A stretch of 64,000 nt of DNA from a virus. The number at the start of each line of letters is the position of its first letter. The stretch's first letter is position 1. The stretch covers positions 1-64,000 of the IMG/VR virus record IMGVR_UViG_3300027708_000033; one strand, given 5' to 3'. The notes beneath the pieces were generated by a model that saw only the letters and a program-made list of their open reading frames with translations, was not told the origin of the DNA and searched no databases. The translations under genes were made by a program, and so were the position numbers. Positions 22,835 to 38,563 of the stretch are shown piece after piece.

Positions 22835-22934
22835 TCTCTAGAAAATAACCTATTTATAGAGGTGTTTTGTAGGTACAACGCTGTAAAATAATTCTAACTG
22901 CTCTAAAGCACAATAGAGTGGCCGAAGGATACAG

Positions 22935-23219: not shown

Positions 23220-24409
23220 GCTTCTCAGAAAATCTAGAAAACTTAGCTAGTCCAGGACAAAGTGGTTCAGATGCCAAGGCACTGAATACTCCTGAGAATT
23301 GGCGTCCCCGCTTGGAGCTAGACTCTTCAGGCGGATTTCTTATTTCAACTCCAAGAAGTGCAGGCGACATTCCAGATGCTGAGCAACTTCTAAGTGAGTT
23401 TGACCTAGACCCTCGTTCTTGGCGGGTAACTGGAGTTCGTCGCTCACGATGGCAGAAGTACGACGGTGAGTGGCTAGAAGCCTTTCGTGTAAGTGTTGTT
23501 CCGGCCGAATTAGCGGTCGCTGACCAGCTAGATGTTGAAATGCTAATTGCAGACATAAAAGGCTGGCGTCCAGAAAAAGGAATCAAGCAGGCTACAGGAA
23601 CCGGTGCGTTTGTCATTGCACCTAGCGACCAGCAAATTGGTAAAAAAGCCGGCGGACAGGGAACTCAACAGTCAATTGAAAGAATCCTAGCCACCACTCA
23701 AGCAGCTGTAGACCGCTTCAATGGACTAAAGCGCTATGGACTAAATCTCGGCACTATCGCTCTTCCTCTTCCTGGTGACCACGTTGAAGGTAACGTGTCA
23801 CAAAATGGACGTCTTCAAGGTCAAGCTTCGTCCGACCTGGGACTTACAGAGCAGGTACGTGTTGCACGTCGTTTGCTAATGCAGCAAATTAAAATGTTAG
23901 CGCCTCTTGCAGAGCGCATGATTGTTCCAGTCGTCAATGGAAACCACGACGAGGTAACTCGTCAGGTCACTGCCGATCCAGCCGACGGCTGGAACGTAGA
24001 AATTGCGTCAGCGGTTCAAGACGCCTGTGCTGAGAATCCAGCACTCCAGCACATTGAGTTTAGATACCCTGCATCTGGTCATCAAACACTAACTGTAAAC
24101 ATTGACGGAACAATGCTTGGACTATTTCACGGACATCAGATGCGTGACCCAGTTAAGTACCTGTCTGCTCAAGCAGCAGGACAGACTGCATTAGGAAATG
24201 CAGACGTTTGGATTTCAGGACACTTCCACAACTTCAAGTGTACAGACATTGGCCACCGTCTTTGGGTTCAATGCCCAACAATAGACCCAGGTTCAGAATG
24301 GTTCCGCGACCGTGCAGGTCTAGAATCAAAGCCAGGACTTTTGACAATGGTTATCGGCGGAGAGTTTGACCCACGTGAGCACATCAACGTGATTCCGGCT
24401 AAGCGCTAA
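23216..24409 (+). CDS. calcineurin-like metallophosphoesterase (Mre11-like nuclease)
   Basis: SDQQIG, GDHVEG, GNHD, FHGH and GHFH motifs. Confidence 0.85.
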   Translation: MSFSENLENLASPGQSGSDAKALNTPENWRPRLELDSSGGFLISTPRSAGDIPDAEQLLSEFDLDPRSWRVTGVRRSRWQKYDGEWLEAFRVSVVPAELAVADQLDVEMLIADIKGWRPEKGIKQATGTGAFVIAPSDQQIGKKAGGQGTQQSIERILATTQAAVDRFNGLKRYGLNLGTIALPLPGDHVEGNVSQNGRLQGQASSDLGLTEQVRVARRLLMQQIKMLAPLAERMIVPVVNGNHDEVTRQVTADPADGWNVEIASAVQDACAENPALQHIEFRYPASGHQTLTVNIDGTMLGLFHGHQMRDPVKYLSAQAAGQTALGNADVWISGHFHNFKCTDIGHRLWVQCPTIDPGSEWFRDRAGLESKPGLLTMVIGGEFDPREHINVIPAKR

Positions 24410-24990
24410 TGACTGAGTATCCAAACTGGTTCGCTAGCGGAGTTGCAATTCAGTATTTTAGTCAGATACTTGGCGAGTTTATAGGTCAACCAGTGCGCAT
24501 GCTACAAATTGGTGCCTATACCGGTGACGCATCTGAGTGGCTTCTAAACAATGTACTCACTAACCCAGAGTCACGTCTTGTAGATGTTGACACGTGGGAA
24601 GGTTCAGATGAGGAGGCACACAGAGCTCTAGACTGGAATAGCGTCGAGTCATTATACACAAGCAGACTTAAAAGCCAGCTAGCTGACGGTAGACTCGTAA
24701 AGGTAAAGTCAACTAGTGCTGAGTACTTTGCCACATACGACGAGATGTATGACTTTATCTATGTAGACGGCGACCACACTGGAATCGGTGTTTTAGCTGA
24801 CGCCATAGACGCGTATGACTGTCTTAATGTTGGAGGAATTGTTGCCTTTGATGACTACGACTGGAACCCAGATAATCTTCCTAGGCATCTCACTCCAGCT
24901 CCAGCTATCGACGCCATTAGAGAGATTTACACTGGCAAACTAGAAGTAATAGCTGAAGGCTATCAAGTTTGGTTTAGAAAGATTTCTTAG
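24409..24990 (+). CDS. class I SAM-dependent methyltransferase (Methyltransf_24-like)
   Basis: LQIGAYTG, VDTW, YDFIYVDGDH, GGIVAFDDY. Confidence 0.85.
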   Translation: MTEYPNWFASGVAIQYFSQILGEFIGQPVRMLQIGAYTGDASEWLLNNVLTNPESRLVDVDTWEGSDEEAHRALDWNSVESLYTSRLKSQLADGRLVKVKSTSAEYFATYDEMYDFIYVDGDHTGIGVLADAIDAYDCLNVGGIVAFDDYDWNPDNLPRHLTPAPAIDAIREIYTGKLEVIAEGYQVWFRKIS

Positions 24991-25519
24991 CTTTCTCTTT
25001 GGCCTTTTTTGCGTCTGCTATAGCCTTTTTTCTTAGGCGCTCAGCTGCCTGCTTTTCTAACTTGTCGGTTCGCTGTGCATGATAAGCCTCAACAGCATTC
25101 GCACTTGTTCGGCTACGCCACGTAAAGTCACATGCAGTACAGTGAACCATTTTCATAGTTTGCCAACGGCCACCGCCAGGAACATCTTTAGAATAAGTCT
25201 CTAGTTTACTAGGTCTAGCAGTGCAGAACGGGCATTGGGGGAATCTACGTCGACGAGACTCCTGACCGTCCCAAGAAACTGACAAAGTTCTACGCAAGTC
25301 GACTTCATCTCGACCGCCCCAGATTCCCCAGATTTGACGATTTTCAAGTGCCCACTTCAAACAGTCCTGGCGAACAGGGCAAGCAAAGCACATGTTTTTT
25401 GCTTGATACTTTTCATCGGCTTTGCTAGAAAAGAAAAATTCTATTTTTTCTCTATTTTCAGTTTTAGCACACTCGGCATCTTTTTGCCACTCTAGTCCGC
25501 TTGATTGGTTATTTATCAT
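24974..25519 (-). CDS. whiB: WhiB family protein with C-terminal zinc ribbon
   Basis: WQ..AEC...FF...AK.MC..CPVR..CL..AL...WGIWGG plus CPFC...CTAC; probable start ATG 25519. Confidence 0.88.
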   Translation of the reverse strand: MINNQSSGLEWQKDAECAKTENREKIEFFFSSKADEKYQAKNMCFACPVRQDCLKWALENRQIWGIWGGRDEVDLRRTLSVSWDGQESRRRRFPQCPFCTARPSKLETYSKDVPGGGRWQTMKMVHCTACDFTWRSRTSANAVEAYHAQRTDKLEKQAAERLRKKAIADAKKAKEKAKKSF

Positions 25520-25857
25520 CAGATTTCCACCCATGTGATTTCAAGAACACTACCGACACACTCGCCTTCACGAGTTTCGCCTTGTTCATCACATAGGGTG
25601 AGGTCTCTAGAATCTTCAATCTCTCCCGCATGTCCATGAGTAACGGCTGCGCTTTCAAGTGCGGCAAAGGCTTGTCCGAGAGAGGAGATAGAGCCATCGC
25701 GTTGCAGTGCTGAAGCTAATGCACGGCGAACAACTTCATGTTCTAGGTCTACGTGGGTTTCTGTAAAGAACACAAGGTGGTCAGGATTGTTAGGTTCATA
25801 GCCTTCACCAGTCCATTCCTGCCATAGGCTTTCGCCTATGCGTGAATCTTTGACCAT
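25519..25857 (-). CDS. acidic hypothetical protein
   Basis: 112-aa ORF with GGAG RBS, coupled to whiB. Confidence 0.7.
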   Translation of the reverse strand: MVKDSRIGESLWQEWTGEGYEPNNPDHLVFFTETHVDLEHEVVRRALASALQRDGSISSLGQAFAALESAAVTHGHAGEIEDSRDLTLCDEQGETREGECVGSVLEITWVEI

Positions 25858-25982: not shown

Positions 25983-26537
25983 CTAAATAGTCGGTTGACG
26001 CAGTGCCGTGGTTTGGTCTATGCCAAAAGTGTAATTACCAGTGATATCTGGCCAAACGTATGAGTATGACTCAGGCCGCTGGCCTTTGTCTTCTGGCCAG
26101 CCAAATTGCGAGTACCAGTCATAATGCTTGTTGAGTAGCGCGCGTCTGTGGCTAGATGCTATAAGCTCAAACAAGTCGGTCTTGGCCATCCAAGTAGGAC
26201 GCTCGAGCACGTCTGAAGTTTTTACTATTTCTAAAAGCTTAGCAAACTCATAAGTCTCCTTGGCTTTATCACCAATAGTCGACTTGTAGCCACGTGACTT
26301 CCATTCTGTGACCATAGCGTGGATGTACTCAAGCAGCATTCCCTCATGCCCTTGCCACATCTTTACAGCCGGGTGATTTGCCCAACCTTTGACTGTTCTA
26401 GGTGTACCGTCTGGGTTTAGTTTTACGAGAACCATAAGAATCTGCCAGCCTTCTAAGGCTTGCTTATTCAGTCGTTTGTTGTCGAGAACCTTAGCCATGT
26501 CCTCAAAGCTGGTTGTTGCTGGAATAAATGTCTGCAT
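25983..26537 (-). CDS. pyrimidine-dimer DNA glycosylase-like (MSMEG_6728/DenV family) protein
   Basis: MQTF.P...LD.KRL.KQ.LE..QIL...NHPAVKMW.G...SHR..LL.K...WY. Confidence 0.8.
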   Translation of the reverse strand: MQTFIPATTSFEDMAKVLDNKRLNKQALEGWQILMVLVKLNPDGTPRTVKGWANHPAVKMWQGHEGMLLEYIHAMVTEWKSRGYKSTIGDKAKETYEFAKLLEIVKTSDVLERPTWMAKTDLFELIASSHRRALLNKHYDWYSQFGWPEDKGQRPESYSYVWPDITGNYTFGIDQTTALRQPTI

Positions 26538-26575: not shown

Positions 26576-27196
26576 TTAACGTTCTTTGCTCAAACTTCCA
26601 ATACTTTCATAGAGACTGCTTGTCTGAGCAAAAAATGGAGAATCGTACACAAGTACTTCATAGAAAGTTTGACCTACTGAAAAAAGCACATCATGAGGAA
26701 CAGCTATTTCAAGTGCTCTTCTACAAGTTCTGTGTGCAAACTTTTTGTATTCGTCACTTACGTACAAGATAGCATGAGCAGCAAGCATGCTTATGACTCT
26801 GTAGATTCCTTCTGCAACAGGAGGCACTTGAATTTGAGTAGGACCAATTGACCATCTTTGAGACGCACCATCAATGTCAAACAAACCTAATGCATAGTTG
26901 CCAAGATAGATTGCGTCAGTCGAGTCTGGAATTTGAAGCACATCTGGAAGACTGTTTATCTCTATTGCATCGTCTTCTAAAATAAGAATAGGACCGCCGG
27001 CTGCCTGTGCAACTTCTATTGCTCGCATGTGAGATGTTGTGCAGCCTCGGATAAACGTACTATCCTTAGTTGCTGATAATCTTAGGACTTCCTTAAAGTT
27101 ATACTTGCTAAGCATAGACTCTATTTTTCGTCGTTTGTCAGTGTCCTCATCTAAGTTGATGTAGATTACTACGACGTCACTTAGTTTTATCTGCAA
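26576..27196 (-). CDS. glycosyltransferase family 25-like protein
   Basis: YINLD....RR, GC..SH, ILILEDDA, AHAILY; probable start TTG 27196. Confidence 0.8.
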   Translation of the reverse strand: MQIKLSDVVVIYINLDEDTDKRRKIESMLSKYNFKEVLRLSATKDSTFIRGCTTSHMRAIEVAQAAGGPILILEDDAIEINSLPDVLQIPDSTDAIYLGNYALGLFDIDGASQRWSIGPTQIQVPPVAEGIYRVISMLAAHAILYVSDEYKKFAHRTCRRALEIAVPHDVLFSVGQTFYEVLVYDSPFFAQTSSLYESIGSLSKER

Positions 27197-27485
27197 GCTG
27201 GCCAACCTCAAAACCGATACCTGCATAACCAGCAATGTCAATCCATGTATCAGCCTGAAACTCACTCTTATTCACATAGCGAGCCATCTTCAAGCCGACC
27301 ATTGCCATTGCCACATCTTGAGCTGTAATCTCAATTGCAAAAATAACTGACCAGATTTTAGCAATACGTCCGAGGTTATCCTCAGGAGCACCATACTGCA
27401 CATCTCTGTCGCCTGCAATTATTCTTGCTGCTTCACGAAGTGCCTCGATACGAGGAAGGTCTTTACCTTGAGTTTCTTCTGTCAT
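27177..27485 (-). CDS. DUF6378-like protein
   Basis: A..II.GDR..QYG.P..N..RIA..WS...DVA..M..LK.AR...D.WIDIAGYA. Confidence 0.8.
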   Translation of the reverse strand: MTEETQGKDLPRIEALREAARIIAGDRDVQYGAPEDNLGRIAKIWSVIFAIEITAQDVAMAMVGLKMARYVNKSEFQADTWIDIAGYAGIGFEVGQLADKTK

Positions 27486-27895
27486 TAGCGAATCCTCTTC
27501 TCCAAGTCTTCTGGACGAAAGTGCGTGCCGTCAATAGACTTGTCAGGTGAACCAAAAATAATGTCACCTGAGCGGATAGCGCCAATAGTGCCGACCTTGC
27601 CGTTAAACGCCATGCCCTTATCTCCGACAAAAGCATTAGTTCTAACTCTGATAATTTCACCGACTTTTAGCTGACCGGCTCTAGCCTGCACCCAGACTTC
27701 ATCTTGCGAACTCTGTACGAGCGAATGCCCTTGAGCAACCTTGCCTAGAATCTCAAAGATTTCCTTAGCTTGCTCTGGAGTAGCGTCAATTTCTTCCCAA
27801 GTCTTTAGAAGTTTTAGAACCGCTCTACCTGTTCCGATACGAATTTTTGCTGCGGTGAACTGCTGGTTTATCCAGTCGTAGTTTACATTAGTCAT
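27485..27895 (-). CDS. hypothetical protein with KOW/SH3-like C-terminus
   Basis: Probable start ATG 27895; LKVGEIIRV...NGKVG.I.AIRSGDII. Confidence 0.6.
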   Translation of the reverse strand: MTNVNYDWINQQFTAAKIRIGTGRAVLKLLKTWEEIDATPEQAKEIFEILGKVAQGHSLVQSSQDEVWVQARAGQLKVGEIIRVRTNAFVGDKGMAFNGKVGTIGAIRSGDIIFGSPDKSIDGTHFRPEDLEKRIR

Positions 27896-28370
27896 TTTTA
27901 ACCTCACATTTGTTGCAGTAGTTTGCGTTGTCCGGATTTGGACCAACGTCGTCGATGGCTCTAGTACACTTTACGCACTTGACACCTTCAGCTTTTACCT
28001 CGTAACCAACGGACTGTCGTTTACGGTTCTTCTCCATCTTCTGCAAGTAGAAGTGGTTGAGTTCCTCATCTGTGCCGCCACAAGCAACAATGATGTTTGC
28101 CACAAAGTGGAGAACATCTACGGCTTCCTTGATTACTTCTTCACGGTCTGCGTATGGCTCGTCCATTTGCCAAGGCTTCCATGATAGAGGCTGGCGCATT
28201 TCAGCAAGTTCATCGTCAATAGCAAGCATGTTCCAACGGATGTACTCGATTAGATTGTTAATCTTCTCAGGTTCGTCGCCGTGCATGGAATCGTAGTCAA
28301 TTTTGTAAACGTTCTTTTGAAGGTCTTTGGTTCGTGCTAGCCACTCGCCGAACAGTTCTCCATTTGTCAT
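27888..28370 (-). CDS. all-alpha NTP pyrophosphatase (dimeric dUTPase/dCTPase, MazG-like)
   Basis: ELAEM....WKPW, EAVDVLHF, Y..K...N..RQ..GY; C-terminal CxxC..CxxC. Confidence 0.85.
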   Translation of the reverse strand: MTNGELFGEWLARTKDLQKNVYKIDYDSMHGDEPEKINNLIEYIRWNMLAIDDELAEMRQPLSWKPWQMDEPYADREEVIKEAVDVLHFVANIIVACGGTDEELNHFYLQKMEKNRKRQSVGYEVKAEGVKCVKCTRAIDDVGPNPDNANYCNKCEVKND

Positions 28371-29392
28371 TTGGTTGCCTTTCGTTTTGTAATACCTAAT
28401 GTCTTATGCAAGTTCTTCTGTGCATCGTCTAGAGAGGGGATAGCTGCTAAATACTCTTCACGCTGCTTAGTAGCAATTGTATTACGCTCATCTTGCGATA
28501 GCGCCTCAATGTTAGCAGCTAGATTTCCCCATGACTGACCAATCTTTACAGTTTCTGTCCATAGGCTGGCGATAGGAGTTGCGGTGTTCATGGCTTGAAT
28601 GTATCTGTAAGTCCACCATGTGCCGTCTTTTTTATGTGGAGTAACAAGTACTCCAGTTGAACGAGCAATTTGTTCTTCTACCAAGCTGTCAGACCAGCCT
28701 TTGTTCCACTTCATCAGACTCACTGGATACACTAACCCAGTAGACACTTTTTCGACCCACGGCGAGTTAGACGAATCCGCGGACCACTTTAATCGACGGT
28801 CTACTTCATAGTGTGCAGGTGTTAGTAGCTCGGCATCTAAGTTGATTCCAACTAAGTTTTGGCTAGCATACTGTGAAAGCTGGTTGCTGACCGCTGAAGC
28901 ATCTTGCCATGGCAAACTTGGATAAATAGTTGTAGGCCAGTCAGCCGTTAGAAGCTGCTCAATAGTTGCCAGAAGACGCCTACGGACCGCATCTTGGCTA
29001 GCCTGCTGAAATCCTTGCCTATTGATGTAAAAGTCCTTGGTGAACGTGTGCGGGTTAGCTGTTACGCTCTTTAGGCTTGCAATAATCTGCCCAGGCTGAG
29101 GCGAATCAACTAGCAGCGTAAGTCGTTTGTCGTTTAGTAACTCAGTGATAACGTGCAACCCACCGTAGCAATAGTTTGCACTCAAACTTGTGAGTGGAGA
29201 AATACCCACGATTACAGAGTCAAATTGGTCTAAAAACTCTTTTGTCCATGCAATAGATGGAACTTCCCATAGCACATCGTGGCCAGCATTGCTCAGCGAT
29301 TTTTCAAGTACTCCAGCAAAACTCAATGAACGAGCATTAGCCTTGCGAGAGGCTTGTGCTGCGGACATTCCTGTCAGGAGAATTTTGCTCAT
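28367..29392 (-). CDS. GT-B fold glycosyltransferase, possibly DNA-modifying (T4 BGT-like)
   Basis: KILLTG..GHDV.W..FDSVIVG..LLVD and W.YRYIQAM.T.TP resemble GT-B/beta-glucosyltransferase motifs; located in the nucleotide operon. Confidence 0.55.
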   Translation of the reverse strand: MSKILLTGMSAAQASRKANARSLSFAGVLEKSLSNAGHDVLWEVPSIAWTKEFLDQFDSVIVGISPLTSLSANYCYGGLHVITELLNDKRLTLLVDSPQPGQIIASLKSVTANPHTFTKDFYINRQGFQQASQDAVRRRLLATIEQLLTADWPTTIYPSLPWQDASAVSNQLSQYASQNLVGINLDAELLTPAHYEVDRRLKWSADSSNSPWVEKVSTGLVYPVSLMKWNKGWSDSLVEEQIARSTGVLVTPHKKDGTWWTYRYIQAMNTATPIASLWTETVKIGQSWGNLAANIEALSQDERNTIATKQREEYLAAIPSLDDAQKNLHKTLGITKRKATK

Positions 29393-29440
29393 TTGTTTTT
29401 GGTTTCTAAAAATTAAGTGAAGTTATTCTTCGTGCGTAGC

Positions 29441-29479
29441 GCACCTAGGTACCGCCTAAAATAGACGATACCTAGGCAC
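29441..29479 (-). terminator. long hairpin after the SSB gene
   Basis: GTGCCTAGGTATCGTCTA-TTT-TAGGCGGTACCTAGGTGC, with G-U pairs on the minus strand. Confidence 0.65.
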
Positions 29480-29491
29480 AAGTTCTGTAAT

Positions 29492-30067
29492 TTAGAACGG
29501 TGACGCAGGTGCTGCAGGTGGAGCAGCAGGCGGCGCAACTTGAGCTTCAACAACTGGAGCTGCAGCTGGCGCTGGAGCTGGAGCAGGTGCAGGAGCAGGC
29601 GCTGGAGCCGGTGCAGGAGCAGCAGGAGCTACAGGAGCATCAGCGGCAGCTACAGGAGCGCCAACATAGTACTTCTTGATTTCGTTCTTCTTAGCACCCT
29701 GCCATACACGAGAACCAATCTGTGCACGGAAGACGCGGTGAAGAATAGCAGCCTCGATAGCTGAGTTGCTTGGGCTAGTTGCGAAGTACTCGCGAGTTAG
29801 ACCTAGCGCTGCCATCTTCGAGAAGAAGATGCCTAGCGCTGCTGGACTGTCCGGTGACACAACCAAGTTGTCCCAGATGCGACGCTTAGCAAACGCGCCA
29901 ACCTGGACTTCAGTTGTAATTTTGAACATGGTCTTACCTGACTGTGAAACTGCAGCCGAAGCTTCAATCACCTTCAGGTCGTAATCGCCATCTGGTAGTG
30001 GCTCGAATGAACCGCCGGTTGCTTCACCGGCGTCTTTTACTAGGTCGCCCCAGTTGAGTGAACTCAT
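29492..30067 (-). CDS. DUF669-like single-stranded DNA-binding protein with Ala-Pro tail
   Basis: FEPLPDGDY..KV..A...SGK.M...IWDNL...NEIKK; (AP)n linker; ends PF. Confidence 0.8.
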   Translation of the reverse strand: MSSLNWGDLVKDAGEATGGSFEPLPDGDYDLKVIEASAAVSQSGKTMFKITTEVQVGAFAKRRIWDNLVVSPDSPAALGIFFSKMAALGLTREYFATSPSNSAIEAAILHRVFRAQIGSRVWQGAKKNEIKKYYVGAPVAAADAPVAPAAPAPAPAPAPAPAPAPAPAAAPVVEAQVAPPAAPPAAPASPF

Positions 30068-30113
30068 AGTTCAGTTTTCCTTATCTCTTTATGAGGACCG
30101 TCTAACCGGGTGG

Positions 30114-30878
30114 CTAAGACGACTTCTTTTTTGTTTCAGTTTTTTCACCGAAAATCATGTCGAGCATGCGCTCGATTCCCATGTCGTGCTGCTCAACGAC
30201 CTTACCTAGTCGTCCCTGCACACGCTCACCAGCTTCAAACTGGTCGGTGCGCTCAACATACATGCGACGTGCTTTGTAAGCTGGCTGAGTTGGGTCTGGA
30301 TTAGCCACAGTTTCCACGTTGATTGCGCCAAGAACATCGTAGAAATACGGTGCCTGGATAGCAAGCTGTCCCTGCAAGTATGGACGTAGTCGACCATCTT
30401 GTCCAGGTCTAGCCATTGCAGTAAGTACTACTGCCTCTAGTGGAGCTGTTGCATGCATTGTCAAGTCGCGCAAGTCACGAAGTAGAGCACCCATGTGACG
30501 AAGAAGTTCGCCCCACTGCTGCATCTGCATCTGGTTCTTGCCAGCAATTTGGTCCATGCACTTGACCTGAAGCTCCGAGATGGAGTCGATAATCAAGCTC
30601 TTGAACTGGTGCTTGCCAAGCTGTAGCCATTGGTAAGCCTTGAGAACTGTGTCGTAGTCGCGAACCATGACAACACAAGTGTCCCATGTTCCGTCAGCTA
30701 CTGGCGGTTCTTCTCGTAGTGGGTCCCAGTACTTAACGTTGATTGGTAGGAATCTGTGTCCACCTTCAACGTCGAGCATTAGGCGTGGGTATGGTGCTGT
30801 GACTGCCAAGGTGGACTTTCCAACCTTTGACTCGCCATAGACCATGATAGTTAGACTGCGTTGTACGTCAGACATCAT
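30114..30878 (-). CDS. AAA_24 / Sak4-like ATPase (recombination)
   Basis: YGESKVGKST, LDVEGG, LIIDSISE. Confidence 0.85.
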   Translation of the reverse strand: MMSDVQRSLTIMVYGESKVGKSTLAVTAPYPRLMLDVEGGHRFLPINVKYWDPLREEPPVADGTWDTCVVMVRDYDTVLKAYQWLQLGKHQFKSLIIDSISELQVKCMDQIAGKNQMQMQQWGELLRHMGALLRDLRDLTMHATAPLEAVVLTAMARPGQDGRLRPYLQGQLAIQAPYFYDVLGAINVETVANPDPTQPAYKARRMYVERTDQFEAGERVQGRLGKVVEQHDMGIERMLDMIFGEKTETKKKSS

Positions 30879-31822
30879 TCACTTCCTTTTTTCTCATCTG
30901 TTATTCCGTAATATCCGTACGGGTCGGATGCTTCAAAAGAATCACTCAGTGCTTGCTCTGCGGCAGAACCGTCATCGATAAGCGTACACACAGAGTAAAA
31001 CTGGCACTTCCACTTGCAGTCACGACTTGGTCGTGGATAGGCTAAGAACTGGTGGTTTCCTCCAGCGTCTAGACCTTCACGCACTCGCATCATGTCTTCA
31101 AGAGTACCGTGTAGACGCTGCCAAAAAGCTCGCAGTGTAAACACGTTGTGGCGTACTTCCATCTGCTCAAAAAATGGCGGACGTGCATTTGCAGTTCGCT
31201 TTACCTTTTTGAGAAGCGTGAAGATACCACCTTCTGAACGCTCACCCTCTTTGTTTTGGGCTTGTTCAAGAAGCATGTAAGTCAGAATCTGTTCGTTCAT
31301 TGCAGCTTGACTAGTAAAGTCAGCAAACGAACCACCAACAGTTTTAAAGTCACGGAACATACGGACACCGTCACCCTTGCGGCGTACTCGCATGTCGAGC
31401 TTACCTTGAAGAATAACCTTGCCGTCCATCAAAGGCATCTCAATGATTTCTTCATTAGAGATTCTCTCTAGCTCGGCGTCAATGCCTTCGTCTTCGACCC
31501 ACTGAAGATAGCCTTCAAGCATGATGCGGCCAAGCTCGCCTTCACTGTCAATTTCACTTGTGTCGCTAAAAGTGTCAATAAGAGTTTGACGGTCTTTTTC
31601 TAGCAACTGTGCGTGAGCTTCAAGAAGTGGAATGTCTTTTGAATAGTACATGTCTAGTGCTTCGTGAATACGAGAGCCTAGAGCAAGCGCACCAGTCATG
31701 TTGGCGCTCTTTGGCTTTAGACGACGGTAGTACGATAACCACCATTTGCGTCGACAGTCTTTGAATGTTTGAATCTCAGAGTTTGAGATTCTAACCGGGG
31801 CTTTTTGTTCTTGTTCAGTCAT
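30875..31822 (-). CDS. PD-(D/E)XK Cas4/RecB-like exonuclease
   Basis: SNSEI..F..C.RKW, GS.IH.AL, GKLD...DFKT, Q..TY, C.WKC.F..VC. Confidence 0.88.
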   Translation of the reverse strand: MTEQEQKAPVRISNSEIQTFKDCRRKWWLSYYRRLKPKSANMTGALALGSRIHEALDMYYSKDIPLLEAHAQLLEKDRQTLIDTFSDTSEIDSEGELGRIMLEGYLQWVEDEGIDAELERISNEEIIEMPLMDGKVILQGKLDMRVRRKGDGVRMFRDFKTVGGSFADFTSQAAMNEQILTYMLLEQAQNKEGERSEGGIFTLLKKVKRTANARPPFFEQMEVRHNVFTLRAFWQRLHGTLEDMMRVREGLDAGGNHQFLAYPRPSRDCKWKCQFYSVCTLIDDGSAAEQALSDSFEASDPYGYYGITDEKKGSE

Positions 31823-33633
31823 TATAGGTTACCTGCCTTGTCGTCCTTGAGTAGTGCTAGTAGTTTGTCTTTGTCCTTGACGATTTGTTCAAAGTTGTCT
31901 GCCTTAGTTTCTAAGACTTGTAGTACACGTTCTTCGATAGTTCCTTCAGTGACGTAGTCCATTATAACCACAGAATCGTGAATTTCTGAACCAATTCTGT
32001 GAATTCTGTCAATTGCTTGCTTGTGCTCAACCAACGACCAAGGTCGCTGAAGCATAACCAAACGTCGACCAGCAGTCAGTGTGATACCAACACCACCAGC
32101 TGCAGCTGTAAACAACACCCATTTGATTCGACCAGACTGGAAGTCATCTACGGCTTTTTGGCGTTCGTCTTCGTCTTGTGCACCAGTGATAAGTCCATGT
32201 GGAATGTCAGCTTTAGTAAGTTCTGCACTGAGCAGCTCGATTAGTTGACGAGACACGGCGCACACCGCAACTGAGTCGTCACCAAAGTCTCCAGATTTAA
32301 TGTCGTCCATTAGTGCGTCAATCTTTGCAGATGGACCGACTAGAACGGTTTTAGTCTCACCTGTAGTCTCGTCTACTTGAAGTTCTGCAAATGAACTAGC
32401 AAACTGGAGTAAACGTGTTGTCTGAGTCAATGGACTTGGCGCTACAACCGCATCACCGTTTTCAAGTTCTGCAATCATGAGGTCACGCATCTGCTCATAG
32501 GCTTTTTTCTGCTTAGGTGACATCTCAACGTCTCGACGCTCGAACATCATCTCAGGTAGCCAAGGCAGAACGCGTGCCTTTAGCATGCGGCGCATTCTTG
32601 GATTTATAGCTGCATGGAATTCCTGCTGCATGTGCGACTTGACCCCAAGAACCATCATGCCGCCAAATGCATTTAGCATTGTGTCAATCATGCGGTCAAT
32701 CCATCTAGTTTTGCTAGGCCACTCTTCTGGAGAAATCCAGTGCAAAATTGCCCACATGTCTAGAACATTGTTTGCAATTGGGGTACCAGTCAGTGCGTAA
32801 CGAATGTCCGCATCTCCAGTTGCCGCCCAAAGTGCGCGAGTCTGTTTAGACTTAGGTTCCTTTGAACGGTGCATCTCATCGGCAATAACAGCTTTAAAGT
32901 CCATCTTGTTTAGCTCACGTAAATGCACCTCGCAACGATTCTCTGAAACCTTCTCGTCATGACCGCCGCATTCTGTGCAACGAGCAAGTGCAACTGAACC
33001 ATAAGGTGCTAATCTTGAGTGTGAACGCAACGACTCCCAGTTGATTACATAAACATGAGTGCCGTCTTCTTCAAATTGCTTTTTACGCTGAGTTGCTGAA
33101 CCTTTGATTACAGTGACGTTTACTCCTGGCCACCACTTAGCAAACTCGCGCTTCCAGTTTTTCTTTAGAGTGTTTGGGCAAACGACTAGCGCAGGAAACA
33201 CCTGTTCACCGCGTCCGTTCAGTTCTGCTAGTGCGCGAATAGCCTGAGCTGTTTTGCCAAGACCAGGCTCATCTGCTAGAAGTGCACGACGCGCTGTTGC
33301 TAGGAACTTTACTCCTGCACGCTGGTGTGGAAACAAATCTTGATAACCTTCACCGTCAGGCAGCGACTCAAGGTCGCGAAGCTCATTTGATGGAGTTATT
33401 CTAGTAGCAAGTTCGTTTGCTGCCCAATCTCCAAGCTTTCCACCGATAACTAGCTCGTCACGAAAAGTTGAGCGCAGCGCTAAACAAGTTGCCCACGAAA
33501 CCGGGATTTTCCAAAGCTGGTCTTTGGCACTGTAACTTGCGCCAGGGATACTCTTGCAAAGTTCTTTGTAACGCCATTCGGCGCCGATGATAATGTGCTT
33601 GCCTGTTTCATCAAGCTCAACGTTTACTGGCAT
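31822..33633 (-). CDS. SNF2-family DNA helicase
   Basis: DEPGLGKT, ADEMH, LTGTP, GVGITL, QAIDRIHRIG. Confidence 0.92.
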   Translation of the reverse strand: MPVNVELDETGKHIIIGAEWRYKELCKSIPGASYSAKDQLWKIPVSWATCLALRSTFRDELVIGGKLGDWAANELATRITPSNELRDLESLPDGEGYQDLFPHQRAGVKFLATARRALLADEPGLGKTAQAIRALAELNGRGEQVFPALVVCPNTLKKNWKREFAKWWPGVNVTVIKGSATQRKKQFEEDGTHVYVINWESLRSHSRLAPYGSVALARCTECGGHDEKVSENRCEVHLRELNKMDFKAVIADEMHRSKEPKSKQTRALWAATGDADIRYALTGTPIANNVLDMWAILHWISPEEWPSKTRWIDRMIDTMLNAFGGMMVLGVKSHMQQEFHAAINPRMRRMLKARVLPWLPEMMFERRDVEMSPKQKKAYEQMRDLMIAELENGDAVVAPSPLTQTTRLLQFASSFAELQVDETTGETKTVLVGPSAKIDALMDDIKSGDFGDDSVAVCAVSRQLIELLSAELTKADIPHGLITGAQDEDERQKAVDDFQSGRIKWVLFTAAAGGVGITLTAGRRLVMLQRPWSLVEHKQAIDRIHRIGSEIHDSVVIMDYVTEGTIEERVLQVLETKADNFEQIVKDKDKLLALLKDDKAGNL

Positions 33634-33635
33634 GC

Positions 33636-33663
33636 TGTTCCTTTCGTCATTAAGTTCATAGTA
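33636..33663 (-). promoter_or_regulatory. promoter -10 plus conserved leader motif
   Basis: TACTAT-N6-AATGACGAAAGGAACA just before the helicase ATG. Confidence 0.65.
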
Positions 33664-33720
33664 TCAAGTAGTTTGATAAAAATACTCGTTTTTGTCTAGT
33701 ATCTTTCAAATTATACAAGT

Positions 33721-34188
33721 TTATTGAAGCAAACGGATAGGCTTCCAACCTAGTCTAATTATGTGAAGCAGTCCGTGGCGAATAGCATCTAAAGCGTGGC
33801 CTTCTCCACCAACATGCCAATACTCAAGTTTCTTTAGTTTAGGGTTGTCGAACATTCCCTTTGCGTCTGACGGCGACTGAAAATAAATGTCTGTAGTTGC
33901 TCGGCCAACATCTAGCAAGCACTGTTTAAGAATTCCAATTTGCTCAAGTGAGAACGGCGCCTGCGAGTTTCTCACAGTCTGCGCGTTGATAGTAAATCGC
34001 TCACATACTATGTCAATCTCAAGTCCCATTTGGTTTGCTGCATCTAGAGCAGCTCTTATCGGTGCTGCGTATTCTTCTTGTTGGACTTCAAGAGACCAGA
34101 CAATCTCTGGTTCCTGGCCATTAGTGTAACTAAATAAAGCCATTCCTGTTGCTTTACCTGGGTCTACTGCTAGAACTAGTTTAGCCAT
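33721..34188 (-). CDS. RuvC-like Holliday junction resolvase
   Basis: VLAVDPGKATG, IVCERF, HALDAIRH. Confidence 0.75.
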   Translation of the reverse strand: MAKLVLAVDPGKATGMALFSYTNGQEPEIVWSLEVQQEEYAAPIRAALDAANQMGLEIDIVCERFTINAQTVRNSQAPFSLEQIGILKQCLLDVGRATTDIYFQSPSDAKGMFDNPKLKKLEYWHVGGEGHALDAIRHGLLHIIRLGWKPIRLLQ

Positions 34189-36008
34189 TAGTACTTATCT
34201 CCCCATGTCTCTAGCGGTCCATCGATTCCAGATGTGAGCGGAACTGCCCAGCCTTCTGTTGTTGTCATGCACTCTTTTACAGTCTGCATGATTTCCTTAA
34301 CGTCCTTGCGTGGAGCATTAAGAACTATTTCGTCATGAACTGGCACGATTAGTAGTTCAGTTAAATCTGCCTGGTCGAGCTTGATTAGATTACTCTTGAA
34401 GACTTCGGCTGCACCTCCTTGGATTAAATAATTGACCAATGTATAAGTGCGGTCATCGTCGCAAGGAATTCGACGTCCAGTCCAAGTTTGCACGTAGCCT
34501 TGACCCTCTGAGCGAAGACGTCTCTGACCTAAATCGTCAATCTGTCTTTGAAACATCGCCATTCCAGGGAAGCGAACATCAAACGCATCTGAAACCGCCT
34601 TCATCTGAGACTTAGTAACTCCAGCTGTAATTGCCTGCTTGTCAACACCGGCGCCATACAGACGACCATAAATTACACCCTTGATGAGATTACGGCGTTT
34701 ATCAGAACGTTGCATTGTAGGGTCTTGGTAAATCTCACGACCAATCTCAGTAAAAGGGTCAGAGCCAGTAGCATCGGCAAGGTTAAACAAGCTGATTAGA
34801 TTTTCGTCCTGCGACATAGACGAGAACATGCGGAACTCTACCTGGTCAAGGTCAGATGTAACAATTACGTGGTCATCGTCTTTAGGCAAGAATGCACGAC
34901 GAACAGTGTCATCTCCTTTTGGCAGTGTCTGCAGTGCTGGTGCAGTAATAGACATGCGACCAGTGCGAGCACCCATAGTTCTAACAGACGGGTGCATGAT
35001 TCCATCGATGTTGCCTTCAATGAAGTTCTTAAAATAAGTATTGGCTAACTTATCTGCTTTGCGCTGTGAGAGAACAGTTTTTGCCAAGTTCTGTACCTCC
35101 GGTGGACCGTCAATAGCAAGAAGTTTTAGCTGGTCTTTGGTCGCTGATTTCTGGCCTGTTGCAGTAAACTCAGTAAACTCTGCTCCAAGAGTTTCAAACT
35201 GACGGACTAGCTGCATGTTGCTTGTAATTGACAGACCGTTGTAGTTGGTCTTAGCCCAGTCTTTTACTTGTTCAGTGTATGCAGTGAGTTCGTCAAACTT
35301 CTTCTTAGAGTAGTCTAGGTCGATACGCGCACCGTTGAGTTCCATGCGAGTAACAATCTTGCGTGTCGCCATCTCAAGTTCATAGGCTCTAGAGTACGGA
35401 CCTTCAGGACCACATTTCTCCCACATCTTTTCAAAGATGCGCATAGTCAAAACTGTGTCTAGCGCACCATATGCCCAGTACGGCTGAAAGCTAGTCGGCA
35501 CAGTTCCCCAAGTCCAGCCATTCTTGTGCATCTCTTCATCTAGGTGTGACTGAAGTTGCGCAGCACGCGGGTCGACATACTGAGCAGTTAGACGCTTCAG
35601 TGCAGCAGATTCAAGTGGGTTGATAATCTGAGCCATAAGCATAGTGTCGTGTGCATTGTGCCAAGGCAGATTCCACCTTGACTGAACTGCAAACCAGCGA
35701 GCCTCAAAGGCAATGTTGTGACAGACAATTGGACCGTCAAACTTGTCCATTGCTTGGTAGAAGACACCTGACCATTCGTCCCAAGGAATCGACCAGCCAT
35801 GCTCTGCGTCACCAACCTGGACTAAACGTAGTTTACCGTGCCATGGAGAAAACGCGTGGTCTTTAGGGTTACCAGGCAGCTCACCTGTTTCAGTGTCGAT
35901 TGCAACAGCGTTCATTGGTCGACGTTCACCAAGCCAGGTAAGAAATTCTCCGGCCTTTTCGACACTATCGACTAGGTCTAGCTTTACACCATCTAATCCT
36001 GTTGTCAT
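34188..36008 (-). CDS. polA: family A DNA polymerase (3'-5' exonuclease + polymerase)
   Basis: DTET, HN..FE, RTGRMS, DLDQVEFR, K...YG..YG, NY.IQG.AA, VHDE. Confidence 0.95.
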   Translation of the reverse strand: MTTGLDGVKLDLVDSVEKAGEFLTWLGERRPMNAVAIDTETGELPGNPKDHAFSPWHGKLRLVQVGDAEHGWSIPWDEWSGVFYQAMDKFDGPIVCHNIAFEARWFAVQSRWNLPWHNAHDTMLMAQIINPLESAALKRLTAQYVDPRAAQLQSHLDEEMHKNGWTWGTVPTSFQPYWAYGALDTVLTMRIFEKMWEKCGPEGPYSRAYELEMATRKIVTRMELNGARIDLDYSKKKFDELTAYTEQVKDWAKTNYNGLSITSNMQLVRQFETLGAEFTEFTATGQKSATKDQLKLLAIDGPPEVQNLAKTVLSQRKADKLANTYFKNFIEGNIDGIMHPSVRTMGARTGRMSITAPALQTLPKGDDTVRRAFLPKDDDHVIVTSDLDQVEFRMFSSMSQDENLISLFNLADATGSDPFTEIGREIYQDPTMQRSDKRRNLIKGVIYGRLYGAGVDKQAITAGVTKSQMKAVSDAFDVRFPGMAMFQRQIDDLGQRRLRSEGQGYVQTWTGRRIPCDDDRTYTLVNYLIQGGAAEVFKSNLIKLDQADLTELLIVPVHDEIVLNAPRKDVKEIMQTVKECMTTTEGWAVPLTSGIDGPLETWGDKY

Positions 36009-36499
36009 TCGTTTTCCTCAATCGTCTCTACTTCAAGCCCACAGCTGCGCAGGTAATCTAATACTTTTTCTGGCTGTCTGTGAACGTCTATTGTTCTTAT
36101 TATAGTCACGACTCTGCGCAAACCTGAGTTGCTAATAAGTTTAGCACACTGCATGCATGGAGCTCCTGTGACGTATATAGTACCGTCGTCAACTCTTGAA
36201 CGGTCTACGTATAGTAGTGCGTTTGCTTCAGCGTGAATAGATGGGCAGGAATCATAAGTATTGTCTAGCGCAGTTAGACCTTGTGCACGCGGGCACCAGT
36301 TGATGCAGTTTCCATCTACCTTTAGATTAGCTGCTGGACCGTTGTAGCCAGTTGCACTAATACGCTGGTTTGCTGATACTACAACTGCACCGACTTGAGC
36401 CCTAGAACAGACTGAGCGTTTGGCTATTAGCCGTGCTATGTCCATCCAGGTTTTATCCCAGCTAGGTCTAGAAGAACTCTCCGTCTTCACCGTCATCAT
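36005..36499 (-). CDS. dCMP deaminase
   Basis: RS.C.R.QVGA, TGYNG, HAEANAL, PCMQCAK. Confidence 0.92.
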   Translation of the reverse strand: MMTVKTESSSRPSWDKTWMDIARLIAKRSVCSRAQVGAVVVSANQRISATGYNGPAANLKVDGNCINWCPRAQGLTALDNTYDSCPSIHAEANALLYVDRSRVDDGTIYVTGAPCMQCAKLISNSGLRRVVTIIRTIDVHRQPEKVLDYLRSCGLEVETIEENE

Positions 36500-36713
36500 A
36501 GAATTCCTGTTCGTCTCTTTCGTCTTCGCGATAATTGTCTTCGTATGGAATCATCATTCCACTTACAAGAACCTGTGCTACTAGGAACAACGCTTCTTGG
36601 GTTTTAAACCCAACCGAGAGCAGTTCTTTGTAGAGCTCGTTGAGCTGGAGCGCGTTAATCCGCAGCGGGCTGATGTATACGTCAGACGCGTATTGGTCAA
36701 ACTCCTCTGGCAT
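36468..36713 (-). CDS. small acidic hypothetical protein
   Basis: 81-aa ORF within the operon; E.YKELL.VGF...EAL. Confidence 0.7.
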   Translation of the reverse strand: MPEEFDQYASDVYISPLRINALQLNELYKELLSVGFKTQEALFLVAQVLVSGMMIPYEDNYREDERDEQEFYDDGEDGEFF

Positions 36714-37568
36714 TTACTCACTCTTTTCTCGGTTTCTGTCAATAGACTTAACCATAGCGTCTGTGTACCATCTAGCTTCTAGAGTTAGACCAGCATACGC
36801 TTCGGCAGAGCCTGTAGCAGCTAATGCAAGATTGGCTTGATTTTGAACATCTTGCCAAGTATCTCCAGTAATAAACGGTACAGGAGTAATCTTATCAGCG
36901 TACTTCAAGTTGTCTGCCGACTCGTAGTGCTGCTCATAGATGTGTAGCGAACCTACATGGTGAGTATACTTGCCAACATCAATGCCTAGAACTGAAGCCA
37001 TAGCGATTTGCACCCTGGTGAACTGGAAGAAGTCGTAAGCAGCACCAAGCCACACATCATTTGAGCGCATGTACACACTCATGTTTAGTTTGTTGTCACG
37101 AATACGGAACTGGTGAAGTGTGGTGCAAGGATAGTCACGCTTGCCATCTTCTAGGTCAAGAGACGGGTCCCAGATAGTTACAAGTGCTTGCCGACTGTCA
37201 GGGTCTTTTTTTAGACGCTCAATGATTGGTGCGTACTGGTTTTGAGTACGTGGACCGTAAGCGCCATGGAAAGTTCCATCATCATTTGTGTAAGCCTTGA
37301 ACTGAGGGCCGACCGCTACTAGTAATTCGTGAGCAGAGACACCGCCTAGCAGTTGCATTGCTTCAACTGCACCAATACCTGGAACAGTGCCGCGGTTGAT
37401 GCCGAGTGGTAACGTGTCGTATGGATTTTCGATACGAATGACTGCATCTTCAATCTCGCGGGTCTTCTGACCACGAGGTGCTACTTCTTTACCGTGCTTT
37501 AGTACATGCTGCACTAGGTCAACGTAACCGTTGACTCCATCAGCGATGTTGATTACCGCAGAATCCAT
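36714..37568 (-). CDS. thymidylate synthase superfamily enzyme, probably dCMP (hydroxy)methylase
   Basis: SRQA, PC, MRSND.WLG..YD (Asp at the ThyA Asn177 position), GSLHIYE. Confidence 0.8.
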   Translation of the reverse strand: MDSAVINIADGVNGYVDLVQHVLKHGKEVAPRGQKTREIEDAVIRIENPYDTLPLGINRGTVPGIGAVEAMQLLGGVSAHELLVAVGPQFKAYTNDDGTFHGAYGPRTQNQYAPIIERLKKDPDSRQALVTIWDPSLDLEDGKRDYPCTTLHQFRIRDNKLNMSVYMRSNDVWLGAAYDFFQFTRVQIAMASVLGIDVGKYTHHVGSLHIYEQHYESADNLKYADKITPVPFITGDTWQDVQNQANLALAATGSAEAYAGLTLEARWYTDAMVKSIDRNREKSE

Positions 37569-38563
37569 GTGTCTTCCTTATCTTTTGTAGTTGCTAGTCT
37601 GGCTATTGCCTGACCGTATTCTGACTTACGAGAGTTTGCAAAGCGTCGTACCCATTGGGGGTGAGGGAGCACACAGTACTCTTCGTCAGTGAATCCTTGT
37701 TTTGTGAGACCTTTTTCAGCTAGTCTACCTAACGCAATGATAGGAGGTTCACCAATAGCCTTCCATAGTGAGCGAATCACGCCAGGTTCTTGGTCGTTGA
37801 TGTTGATTAGACCAATTTCCTTCCAAAATTCATCTGGCAGTGAAGTAAGTAGGTACTCACCAGAATTACTGTCTAATGGAGTAAAAGGCAAGTCAGTCTT
37901 GTGGCTATACTTCTTCTTTATATTTGGTCGGTCACCAATTAGAAGGACCTTTGGTTTTGGGACTCCAATGTACTGCGGAAAATACTCTAGATGTGAAGCC
38001 ATGATTGACACTTCTTGCGCAGCATCGACAATCATCTTTGCTAACTCAGGAAGAGCATCTAGGCTATCTGGCTTAGGAGTCAGCATCGCCGTACCTATAG
38101 AAGCTCGTCGTGCAATGTGATACTGGCTCAAGATTTCTGACAAATCAGATGTGTCTACAAAGTCATCACCACGCGCCTCTAAACGCCGCTGAATGACCTC
38201 TAGAGGCTGATAAAGCCAGAACTGTGCAATACCACGAGATGCCATAAATAGTTCCACCCAGCGCCATCCAGCCTGTCCAAGTAGACCATATCCGTCTGCG
38301 TTAGTACCTGGTCTGAACTTAGGTGCATAGGTGATTTCACCCCAGTGCCAACGGTCAGATAGGCAGATTTGTTTAAACAGATTTTCATGCTCTATAGCCA
38401 AGACGTAGTCATTTAGAACCCAATTACGTGTCAGTTCTTCTGGCTTGCCTTTATGAAAAAGCTTAATAGGAGCACTGCGAAAGCGAGTGCTAAGTTCTTG
38501 TTTTACTGCCTCAGTTAAAGAGGTCTTGCCTGAAGCGTCGGTGCCTTCAAGTACTATAAACAT
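37553..38563 (-). CDS. dNMP kinase fused to uracil-DNA-glycosylase-like domain
   Basis: N-terminal LEGTDASGKTS, DRWHWGE..Y, R..RGDD; C-terminal VLLIGDRP..PF....SG.YL..IALG..A..LPHP; start ATG 38563. Confidence 0.75.
   Translation of the reverse strand: MFIVLEGTDASGKTSLTEAVKQELSTRFRSAPIKLFHKGKPEELTRNWVLNDYVLAIEHENLFKQICLSDRWHWGEITYAPKFRPGTNADGYGLLGQAGWRWVELFMASRGIAQFWLYQPLEVIQRRLEARGDDFVDTSDLSEILSQYHIARRASIGTAMLTPKPDSLDALPELAKMIVDAAQEVSIMASHLEYFPQYIGVPKPKVLLIGDRPNIKKKYSHKTDLPFTPLDSNSGEYLLTSLPDEFWKEIGLININDQEPGVIRSLWKAIGEPPIIALGRLAEKGLTKQGFTDEEYCVLPHPQWVRRFANSRKSEYGQAIARLATTKDKEDTWILR

Follow-up and report, generated by a model that had tools for sequence, protein, structure and literature searches.

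A candidate T4-like module for cytosine hydroxymethylation and DNA glycosylation in a putative actinobacterial phage

Could a large freshwater phage known from metagenomic sequence replace the cytosine of its DNA with a modified base by a route resembling that of T4? The question is raised by a gene cluster in the first 64 kb of the 127,237-base IMG/VR record IMGVR_UViG_3300027708_000033 (CheckV completeness 76%), a stretch that we call the window. In this cluster, a gene for a thymidylate synthase (TS) homologue lies with genes for a kinase, a deoxycytidine monophosphate (dCMP) deaminase, an all-alpha nucleoside triphosphate (NTP) pyrophosphatase, a protein of the GT-B glycosyltransferase fold and PolA, a family A DNA polymerase (Table 1). 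An original prediction, made from the letters of the sequence, held that these genes form a T4-like pathway of cytosine hypermodification in an actinobacterial siphovirus. The genes that it named all lie where it had placed them, on the minus strand, and 38563, the end of its range, is the start codon used by kinase homologues. Every computational check that follows from the idea gave a favourable result, so that sequence comparisons and structural models support it. On balance, we think it probable that cytosine is replaced by 5-hydroxymethylcytosine (5-hmC) before replication and that the DNA is glycosylated afterwards.

Results

The TS homologue has a residue signature of the gp42 type

The TS homologue contains MRSNDVWLGAAYD. 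Its best sequence match in the PDB is MilA, a CMP hydroxymethylase (5b6d, E 3.6e-26 over residues 29-267); the best match to a canonical TS structure has an E value of 1.1e-20 and covers the core only. The original prediction had set an aspartate opposite Asn177 of E. coli ThyA, and two alignments agree on this placement: in a HMMER alignment to canonical TS structures, the final Asp of the motif falls opposite the Asn of 'FNIASY' (ThyA N177), and a MAFFT alignment indexed on E. coli ThyA again gives Asp at position 177. The indexed alignment, which comprised E. coli ThyA, T4 gp42, RB69 gp48, three enzymes of the dUMP-hydroxymethylase type and relatives of the window enzyme, extends the resemblance beyond Asp177 to the full signature of gp42. 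In ThyA numbering, the window enzyme and T4 gp42 both have D143, T147, M165, D169 and D177, and they are likewise identical at C146, R166, S167 and N168. The corresponding residues are L143, H147, Q165, D169 and N177 in E. coli ThyA; D143, N147, N165 or I165, D169 and N177 in the three dUMP-hydroxymethylase types; and E143, T147, M165, N169 and D177 in RB69 gp48. The catalytic Cys of the window enzyme, in RDYPCT, aligns with ThyA C146, and both Ser167 and Arg126' are present.

These positions have been given functional meanings in earlier work. The N177D substitution confers dCMP specificity (PMC13326640, PMC5175136), L143D/E goes with a hydroxymethyl rather than a methyl product, and D169N is a mark of the flavin-dependent 5-hydroxy-dCMP synthases (both PMC13326640). 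In T4 dCMP hydroxymethylase, the substrate water is activated by the Asp that precedes the Cys by three residues, and D145N abolishes activity (PMC6400193). Ser167 and Arg126' determine the preference for deoxyribose, and Ala and Lys are found at these positions in MilA (PMC5175136). Because the window enzyme keeps Asp169 (RSND) where the 5-hydroxy-dCMP synthases have Asn, a hydroxymethyl rather than a hydroxyl product is predicted. Together, these comparisons suggest that the TS homologue is very probably a cytosine C5-hydroxymethylase, with dCMP as its predicted substrate.

The signature is no accident of a single sequence, as the motifs [RK]DYPCT and MRSNDVWLG[AS]AYD are kept in all 80 related IMG/VR loci; D143, D169 and D177 are also present in each of the six Gordonia phage enzymes that we inspected. 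In profile searches, the window enzyme stays under the cut-off of all eight NCBIfam thymidylate synthase models that it matches (for example, 92.3 vs 174.55, 83.5 vs 108.35 and 83.3 vs 327 bits), and T4 gp42 behaves likewise (6/6). Among PHROG families, phrog_5131 is the first match of the window enzyme, and T4 gp42 belongs to phrog_160. In a maximum-likelihood TS tree, the window enzyme groups in one clade with the Gordonia enzymes and with its relatives from freshwater (support 97/96), and a single branch parts the Asp177 from the Asn177 enzymes (only 77/86); very long branches lead to the enzymes of T4, RB69 and E. coli.

Two other class assignments were considered. A canonical ThyA is disfavoured by the missed NCBIfam cut-offs and by D, T, M and D at the positions of L143, H147, Q165 and N177. 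A 5-hydroxy-dCMP synthase of the RB69 gp48 type is disfavoured by the Asp kept at the position of ThyA D169, which is Asn in RB69 gp48.

The pyrophosphatase is homologous to T4 gp56

The original prediction counted the all-alpha pyrophosphatase among the T4-like parts of the locus, and a homologue in T4 can indeed be detected. The protein aligns with the dCTPase/dUTPase gp56 at 30% identity over 117 columns and 45.8 bits, and the maximum over 200 shuffles was 20.8 bits. Both proteins match phrog_173 and phrog_18650. On this sequence evidence the pyrophosphatase is homologous to T4 gp56, and we propose for it a role as dCTPase/dUTPase. A PDB sequence search with the pyrophosphatase returned 0 matches, and no trimeric dUTPase was found in a search of the 127,237-base record.

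Two candidate glycosyltransferases flank the pyrophosphatase region

The 341-aa protein has no Pfam match up to an E value of 10, whereas T4 beta-glucosyltransferase (BGT) matches PF09198 at 9.4e-98, and its 166 homologues are all unnamed and without Pfam domains. The original prediction had called it GT-B-like and pointed to T4 BGT as the structure to compare. An AlphaFold (AF2) model of high confidence (pLDDT 93.1, pTM 0.90) retrieved GT-B glycosyltransferases in Foldseek, and the highest TM-score, 0.59, was that of T4 BGT. When the best 998 chains from Foldseek were realigned, T4 BGT (1nzd) again came first (Z 19.0, rmsd 3.6, 297/351 residues), followed by SenB (Z 16.8), PimA (16.2), TarM (15.6), T4 alpha-glucosyltransferase (AGT; 15.6) and MshA (15.2). 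The median isoelectric point of the family, 6.85, is uninformative on DNA binding. We propose, from the modelled fold, that this protein is a GT-B glycosyltransferase of an undescribed sequence family and a candidate 5-hmC DNA glycosyltransferase.

Further along the strand, outside the range that the original prediction covered, lies a gene whose product resembles GT25 enzymes. Besides the PHROG match in Table 1, it has a weak match to a glucosyltransferase PHROG (2e-5) and a match to Pfam GT25 (PF01755) at E 0.026, which is below the cut-off; its Atlas feature score to viral clusters named GT25 is 0.98, with PF01755 found on 41% of the cluster members. The open reading frame (ORF) extends up to 27265; a start at the TTG at 27196, which GAGG precedes, would yield the 206-aa product. 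Judging from these sequence matches, the product is probably a GT25-like glycosyltransferase of the GT-A type and possibly a second sugar-adding enzyme.

The kinase has two domains

The kinase ORF reaches upstream to a TTG at 38590, and its homologues begin at the ATG at 38563, covering 97% of the ORF from Met10. The AF2 model (pLDDT 90.1) falls into two domains. The N-terminal domain (approximately residues 1-190) resembles YorR (2axp, Z 17.1), a B. subtilis prophage protein, and thymidylate kinases (Z approximately 14), and hmmsearch also connects it to 2axp (E 2.8e-8). The family has an invariant P-loop, GTDASGK, and a DRW motif, and the protein scores below the Pfam and NCBIfam cut-offs for thymidylate kinase. 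From its sequence, we propose that this domain is a nucleoside monophosphate (NMP) kinase of the YorR/thymidylate-kinase-like type, and a candidate 5-hydroxymethyl-dCMP (5-hm-dCMP) kinase. Thus the NMP kinase expected by the original prediction is present, but it is YorR/Tmk-like and joined to a second domain, and a profile of its family found no match in the T4 genome at E 0.01, the fold being the general NMP-kinase fold.

The C-terminal domain (approximately residues 190-336; 37553-38020) matches the Pfam uracil-DNA glycosylase (UDG) family PF03167 with an E value of 5.5e-4 and 20.5 bits, against a cut-off of 24.3, and in Foldseek this half gives a weak match to Thermotoga maritima UDG (1l9g, E 2.9e-4, TMt 0.49). 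It carries invariant GD..N, F.P.D.NS and HPQ motifs. A profile of the whole kinase family found no UDG among the 60 PDB matches listed, and among 40 distant family members 26 match Pfam Thymidylate_kin and 2 match UDG. The domain is widespread, with 578 matches among 50%-identity representatives; among the 150 matches listed, most are proteins of 300-340 aa that carry the UDG-like domain C-terminally. In tblastn searches against phages with this domain alone, DSL-LC01, a metagenomic phage, was the sole match. The sequence and the model weakly suggest a divergent fold like that of the UDG superfamily, and it is possible that the domain might read or excise unmodified bases.

The genes are linked in close and distant relatives

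Linkage was counted in the 80 related IMG/VR loci. These loci are close relatives (60-74% identity), and what the counts demonstrate is conservation rather than independent association. The two-domain kinase lies upstream of the TS homologue in 76/76 loci, the deaminase follows it in 77/77, and PolA is present in 73/73. A member of the GT-B family lies at most 10 kb downstream in 35 of 40 loci, 18 of the 40 having two paralogues within 10 kb, and in the five remaining loci it lies just past the 10-kb flank (5/5). Wherever it could be scored (23/23 loci), the pyrophosphatase gene directly follows the GT-B gene. In the window, the GT-B gene lies within the replication/nucleotide module, between an SSB-like gene and the pyrophosphatase.

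On present sequence comparisons, linkage in distant phages is stronger evidence than the counts among the 80 loci. In a collection of 50,697 phage records, only 14 match the GT-B family, all of them from DSL-LC01 or one of eight Gordonia phages, and these phages also top the match list of the TS homologue itself. In Forza and GMA2, the order of one or more glycosyltransferase genes, NTP pyrophosphatase, methyltransferase and WhiB is that of the window, at 21-25% identity. The GT-B profile also matches an unrelated 56-kb siphovirus from Manatee Spring, whose 'pyrimidine hmase' is an Asp177 enzyme. In Bacillus phage G, where the family profile found no member of this GT-B family, the neighbours of an Asp177 enzyme are a deaminase, an annotated alpha-glucosyltransferase and a kinase related to the two-domain kinase over its full length.

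In DSL-LC01, a gene for UDP-galactopyranose mutase (PF03275, E 5e-30) is flanked by two GT-B paralogues at 19906-23051. If the acceptor is DNA, DSL-LC01 may, by analogy, attach galactofuranose to it. The paper on DSL-LC01 treats the mutase as a cell-wall auxiliary gene, and the word 'thymidylate' is absent from its main text. For Rhizobium phage RL38JI, the galactofuranose used in DNA glycosylation is proposed to come from an NDP-sugar (UDP-galactose) mutase encoded by the phage (PMC13326640).

Gene layout and viral setting

Every gene from 39071 down to 24974 is carried on the minus strand (Table 1). The original prediction had left three neighbours of the pathway genes unassigned. One of them is a DUF6378 protein, for which a PDB sequence search gave 0 matches and whose PHROG label, 'phosphofructokinase', we gave no weight. 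The other two, the 153-aa basic protein and the 81-aa acidic protein, indeed have no Pfam or PHROG match. The former is 41% identical to a hypothetical protein of DSL-LC01, and its best Atlas score, 0.84, is a lead only; the latter is present in 32 of 77 related loci, and its size and charge are reminiscent of DNA-mimic inhibitors such as Ugi.

Table 1. Genes of the predicted module and its surroundings, listed in the direction of transcription
Feature	Position	Strand	Remarks
Kinase, 336/345 aa	37553-38563/38590	minus	first in transcription order
TS homologue, 284 aa	36714-37568	minus	PF00303 E 9.2e-29
Acidic protein, 81 aa, pI 4.05	36468-36713	minus	between TS homologue and deaminase
dCMP deaminase	36005-36499	minus	PF00383 E 1.4e-21; phrog_174 E 2.8e-46
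PolA, family A DNA polymerase with 3'-5' exonuclease domain	34188-36008	minus	PF00476 E 7.5e-53; PF01612 E 9.5e-9
155-aa gene		minus	after PolA; no Pfam match; in the position of a gene annotated as RuvC-like resolvase in DSL-LC01
SNF2 helicase, then PD-(D/E)XK nuclease, AAA_24 ATPase, DUF669 protein		minus	between 155-aa gene and 341-aa protein
341-aa GT-B fold protein	28367-29392	minus	fold from predicted structure; no Pfam match
All-alpha (MazG / dimeric-dUTPase-like) NTP pyrophosphatase	27888-28370	minus	PF08761 E 4.3e-11
Basic protein, 153 aa, pI 9.7	27485-27946	minus	no Pfam or PHROG match
DUF6378 protein	27177-27485	minus	PF19905 E 5.4e-27
GT25-like protein, approximately 206 aa	26576-27196	minus	phrog_24091 E 3.8e-34; start uncertain
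Pyr_excise-family (T4 endonuclease V-like) protein	25983-26537	minus	downstream of module; followed by a 112-aa protein
WhiB-like protein	24974-25534	minus	assigned from its own translation and synteny (Gordonia phage counterparts annotated WhiB), not from a family search

Searched against phages by megablast, the region gave a sole match of 160 bases. The stretch occurs in 19 public sequencing runs, three of which, with full word share, may be the source sample. The WhiB gene and the relatives among Gordonia phages and DSL-LC01 fit an actinobacterial phage, as far as sequence can tell. The tail is apparently of the siphovirus type, which is read by analogy solely from the annotation of the syntenic DSL-LC01 (tape measure, tail assembly chaperones). 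In the structural region there are very long minus-strand ORFs of 3599 aa (68573-79372) and 1716 aa (62771-67921), given in positions of the record.

Elsewhere in the window, a B12-dependent (class II) ribonucleotide reductase is encoded at 5117-7201 on the minus strand and a primase-polymerase/D5-type helicase at 19418-22042; from these and the genes of Table 1, much of the machinery for nucleotide supply and replication is, by its sequence, phage-encoded. Within 23216-24990, the plus strand encodes a class I methyltransferase (Methyltransf_24) and a metallophosphatase, and a methyltransferase adjoins the glycosyltransferase and pyrophosphatase genes in DSL-LC01, Forza and GMA2 as well. Three successive plus-strand ORFs of 1056-1077 aa at 8213-17858 have no Pfam match, and the first and third are weakly similar to each other (31% over 282 aa). 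Near the start of the record, a tRNA-Trp (1624-1695) and a tmRNA (1760-2104; tag peptide ANSRSAFALAA) lie on the minus strand; the pair either belongs to the phage or marks an attachment site or the junction with host DNA. The record closes (123312-127049) with genes for a DNA N6/N4 methylase, a glycosyltransferase of family GT2 and a serine recombinase of 230 aa.

Discussion

A proposed pathway and the points against it

The observed gene identities, folds, residue signature, gp56 homology and conserved linkage can be arranged into the following pathway. The pyrophosphatase would hydrolyse dCTP, and probably dUTP too, to the monophosphate. With methylene-tetrahydrofolate and an Asp-activated water, the TS-fold enzyme would convert dCMP to 5-hm-dCMP, which the adjacent YorR/Tmk-like kinase would raise to the diphosphate and a host NDP kinase to the triphosphate. 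The phage PolA would then incorporate 5-hm-dC. After replication, the GT-B enzyme would move a sugar from an NDP-sugar onto the hydroxymethyl group, perhaps helped by the GT25-like enzyme. Meanwhile, the dCMP deaminase would shunt part of the dCMP to dUMP for the host thymidylate synthase.

Several points weigh against this pathway. Within the Ser94-x-Tyr96 pair of T4, the TS homologue keeps the Tyr but has Gly in place of the Ser (HGAYG). The position of Ser94 is also Ala or Gly in the three aligned dUMP-hydroxymethylase-type enzymes, so we regard the Ser as a feature of the T4 subfamily rather than a chemical requirement, and T4 S94A retains approximately 25% activity (PMC6400193). The deep branches of the TS tree are unresolved and do not support common ancestry with gp42; what we claim is therefore shared chemistry, not membership of one clade. 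A deaminase is present, yet the record, which is only 76% complete, has no thymidylate synthase of its own, a search of its 127,237 bases having found neither a second ThyA nor ThyX. It also encodes a DNA N6/N4 methylase, and none of the accessory genes of the T4 type (a cytosine-DNA-specific nuclease, Alc, IPI-like) was recognized in it, although no search was aimed at them. The terminal serine recombinase and its neighbours suggest, from their sequences, a temperate lifestyle, perhaps with a glycosyltransferase for lysogenic conversion, and it is unusual for phages with full base replacement to be temperate. As for the last step, the GT-B fold is very widespread and serves many acceptors other than DNA, actinophage glycosyltransferases are known to modify virion proteins, and an hhalign comparison of the GT-B family with T4 BGT gave a probability of 0.5%, that is, no sequence similarity. 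More generally, the evidence is computational throughout, and from it we infer all of the enzymatic activities, the identity of the sugar and DNA as its acceptor.

Alternative explanations

The points about the glycosyltransferases lead to the possibility that 5-hm-dCMP is made but that the GT-B and GT25-like enzymes act on virion proteins or host envelope glycans, leaving the DNA with bare 5-hmC or another derivative. To the common fold and the virion glycosylation of actinophages can be added that GT-B enzymes of diverse acceptors (SenB, PimA, TarM and MshA) lie only 2-4 Z units below T4 BGT, that a further GT2 gene adjoins the recombinase, and that the mutase beside the two paralogues of DSL-LC01 is an enzyme of galactan synthesis for the actinobacterial cell wall and was so read by its authors. 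Against a non-DNA acceptor stands the place of the GT-B gene, which lies in the replication/nucleotide module and not among structural or lysis genes, and is directly followed by the gp56-like pyrophosphatase gene at all scored loci. In the phage collection, moreover, the family occurs only where the Asp177 enzyme does, no structure matches better than T4 BGT, and the mutase of RL38JI offers a precedent for a phage UDP-galactose mutase proposed to serve DNA glycosylation (PMC13326640). We consider this explanation doubtful, although it is the foremost of the alternatives. A route through uracil seems improbable to us. Here, 5-hm-dCMP would be deaminated to 5-hm-dUMP and give rise to a thymidine-type modification derived from 5-hydroxymethyluracil (5-hmU), and the kinase, with its UDG-like domain of the base-flipping type, might work on DNA in the manner of the 5-hmU DNA kinases. 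Such a route is compatible with the tight linkage of kinase, Asp177 enzyme and deaminase in every lineage examined, with a record that lacks thymidylate synthase, and with the UDG-like domain of the kinase, as UDG domains have been linked to thymidine-modified phage genomes (PMC13697223). However, the three aligned hydroxymethylases of the thymidine-pathway type have Asn177 and work directly on dUMP, so that the detour would be unnecessary; the kinase has the DRW motif of NMP kinases and matches YorR and thymidylate kinases; and T4, too, has a dCMP deaminase beside gp42. Two weak negatives point in the same direction: the kinase profile found no match in a ViI-like phage or in Montesquieu, and a single-sequence search found no relative of the Montesquieu aGPT-pyrophosphorylase clade 1 in the record.

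The remaining alternatives concern the TS homologue itself. It could be a dCMP methyltransferase, with 5-methylcytosine in the DNA as in Xanthomonas phage XP12, since Asp177 alone predicts only cytosine specificity and the folate chemistry is common to both reactions; its Asp143, however, is that of hydroxymethylases and not the bulky hydrophobic residue of methyl producers (PMC13326640, PMC6400193), and its closest solved relative is a hydroxymethylase, which makes a methylase very improbable. Ordinary nucleotide salvage, with a true TS, a thymidylate kinase, a deaminase, a housekeeping MazG and canonical DNA, would agree with the public annotations of all relatives as thymidylate synthase or thymidylate kinase and with the textbook dTTP route from deaminase through TS to Tmk, there being no other TS in the record. 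This explanation has to contend with L143D, H147T, Q165M and N177D, the last of which switches specificity to dCMP (PMC13326640, PMC5175136), and with scores far under the NCBIfam equivalog cut-offs, and we would be surprised if it were correct. Finally, MilA as the best PDB match raises the idea that the enzyme acts on the ribonucleotide CMP, as MilA does, and yields a small molecule or the free base 5-hmC, not a DNA precursor. The residues behind the ribose preference of MilA, Ala176 and Lys133', are Ser and Arg here, as they are in T4 gp42 and ThyA (PMC5175136), the gene sits between the kinase and PolA in a phage replication module, and no MilB-like N-glycosidase was recognized, although no search was aimed at one; we find this idea scarcely credible.

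A more elaborate version of cytosine modification would have the GT-B and GT25-like enzymes build an undescribed adduct, 5-hmC bearing a sugar or disaccharide (galactofuranose in DSL-LC01), and the UDG-fold domain serve as a base-flipping reader or glycosylase. If that domain told unmodified C/U-DNA from modified DNA, it would constitute a new device for distinguishing self from non-self in a possibly temperate actinophage. We think this unlikely. The simpler pathway, hydroxymethylation of dCMP followed by glycosylation of the DNA, remains the one that we favour.

Implications

A search of the main texts of open-access papers and bioRxiv preprints found no report of hydroxymethylcytosine or cytosine hypermodification in actinophages or in the Gordonia phages named here. 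At the nucleotide step the chemistry has precedents, and what is new lies in the host group, in the family of the glycosyltransferase and in how the kinase is built. Among actinophages are those of the very large SEA-PHAGES collection and some that are under consideration for therapy. If the favoured pathway is correct, a clade of actinophages abundant in freshwater (80 IMG/VR loci), together with several Gordonia phages in culture, carries DNA that resists many restriction enzymes, and the modification may affect cloning, sequencing and CRISPR targeting. A function would also be gained for a GT-B family without a Pfam or PHROG match, and a widespread architecture of kinase and UDG-like domain (578 clusters at 50% identity) would be tied to the metabolism of modified nucleotides. 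The main value of the analysis is that a metagenomic prediction becomes testable at the bench, because cultured Gordonia phages share the module.

Comparison with known systems

The 5-hmC system of T4, made up of gp42, the dNMP kinase gp1, gp56, the dCMP deaminase cd, AGT and BGT, has the same logical parts list as the window: the gp42 signature, a gp56 homologue, a GT-B fold like that of BGT and a dCMP deaminase. The two differ in setting and in several of the parts. The window phage belongs to an actinophage lineage that has PolA, WhiB and a tail module apparently of the siphovirus type, its pathway genes are clustered whereas those of T4 are scattered, and its record lacks a thymidylate synthase of its own. 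In addition, its kinase is YorR/Tmk-like with a UDG-like domain, its GT-B enzyme has no similarity to PF09198, and there is an extra GT25-like enzyme. MilA, of mildiomycin biosynthesis (5b6d/5jnh), is the closest solved sequence relative of the TS homologue and shares Asp at positions 143 and 177, but Ser167 and Arg126', which the window enzyme has in common with T4 gp42 and ThyA, are replaced in MilA by Ala and Lys (PMC5175136).

The 5-hydroxy-dCMP systems (RB69 gp48, DLP3 gp80 and RL38JI) likewise combine an Asp177 TS homologue with a dNMP kinase and DNA glycosyltransferases (PMC13326640), and the NDP-sugar mutase of RL38JI parallels the mutase between the GT-B paralogues of DSL-LC01; their synthases, however, have Asn169, whereas Asp is found in the window enzyme and all 80 relatives. 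The dUMP hydroxymethylases of the SPO1 gp29 and ViI types are approximately 30-34% identical to the window enzyme, share Asp143 and fall on the same broad hydroxymethylase branch of the TS superfamily, but they have Asn177, Asn147 and a one-residue insertion before position 177.

The closest comparison is with the Gordonia phages GodonK, Phendrix, Forza, Mareelih, Boopy, BlueNGold, Sixama and GMA2 and with DSL-LC01. These phages have a kinase, an Asp177 TS homologue, a deaminase, a polymerase and GT-B genes beside an NTP pyrophosphatase, as the window does. Their genes are annotated only as thymidylate synthase, thymidylate kinase or hypothetical proteins, the number of glycosyltransferase genes varies among them, and the kinases of the Gordonia phages, unlike that of the window, are without the UDG-like domain.

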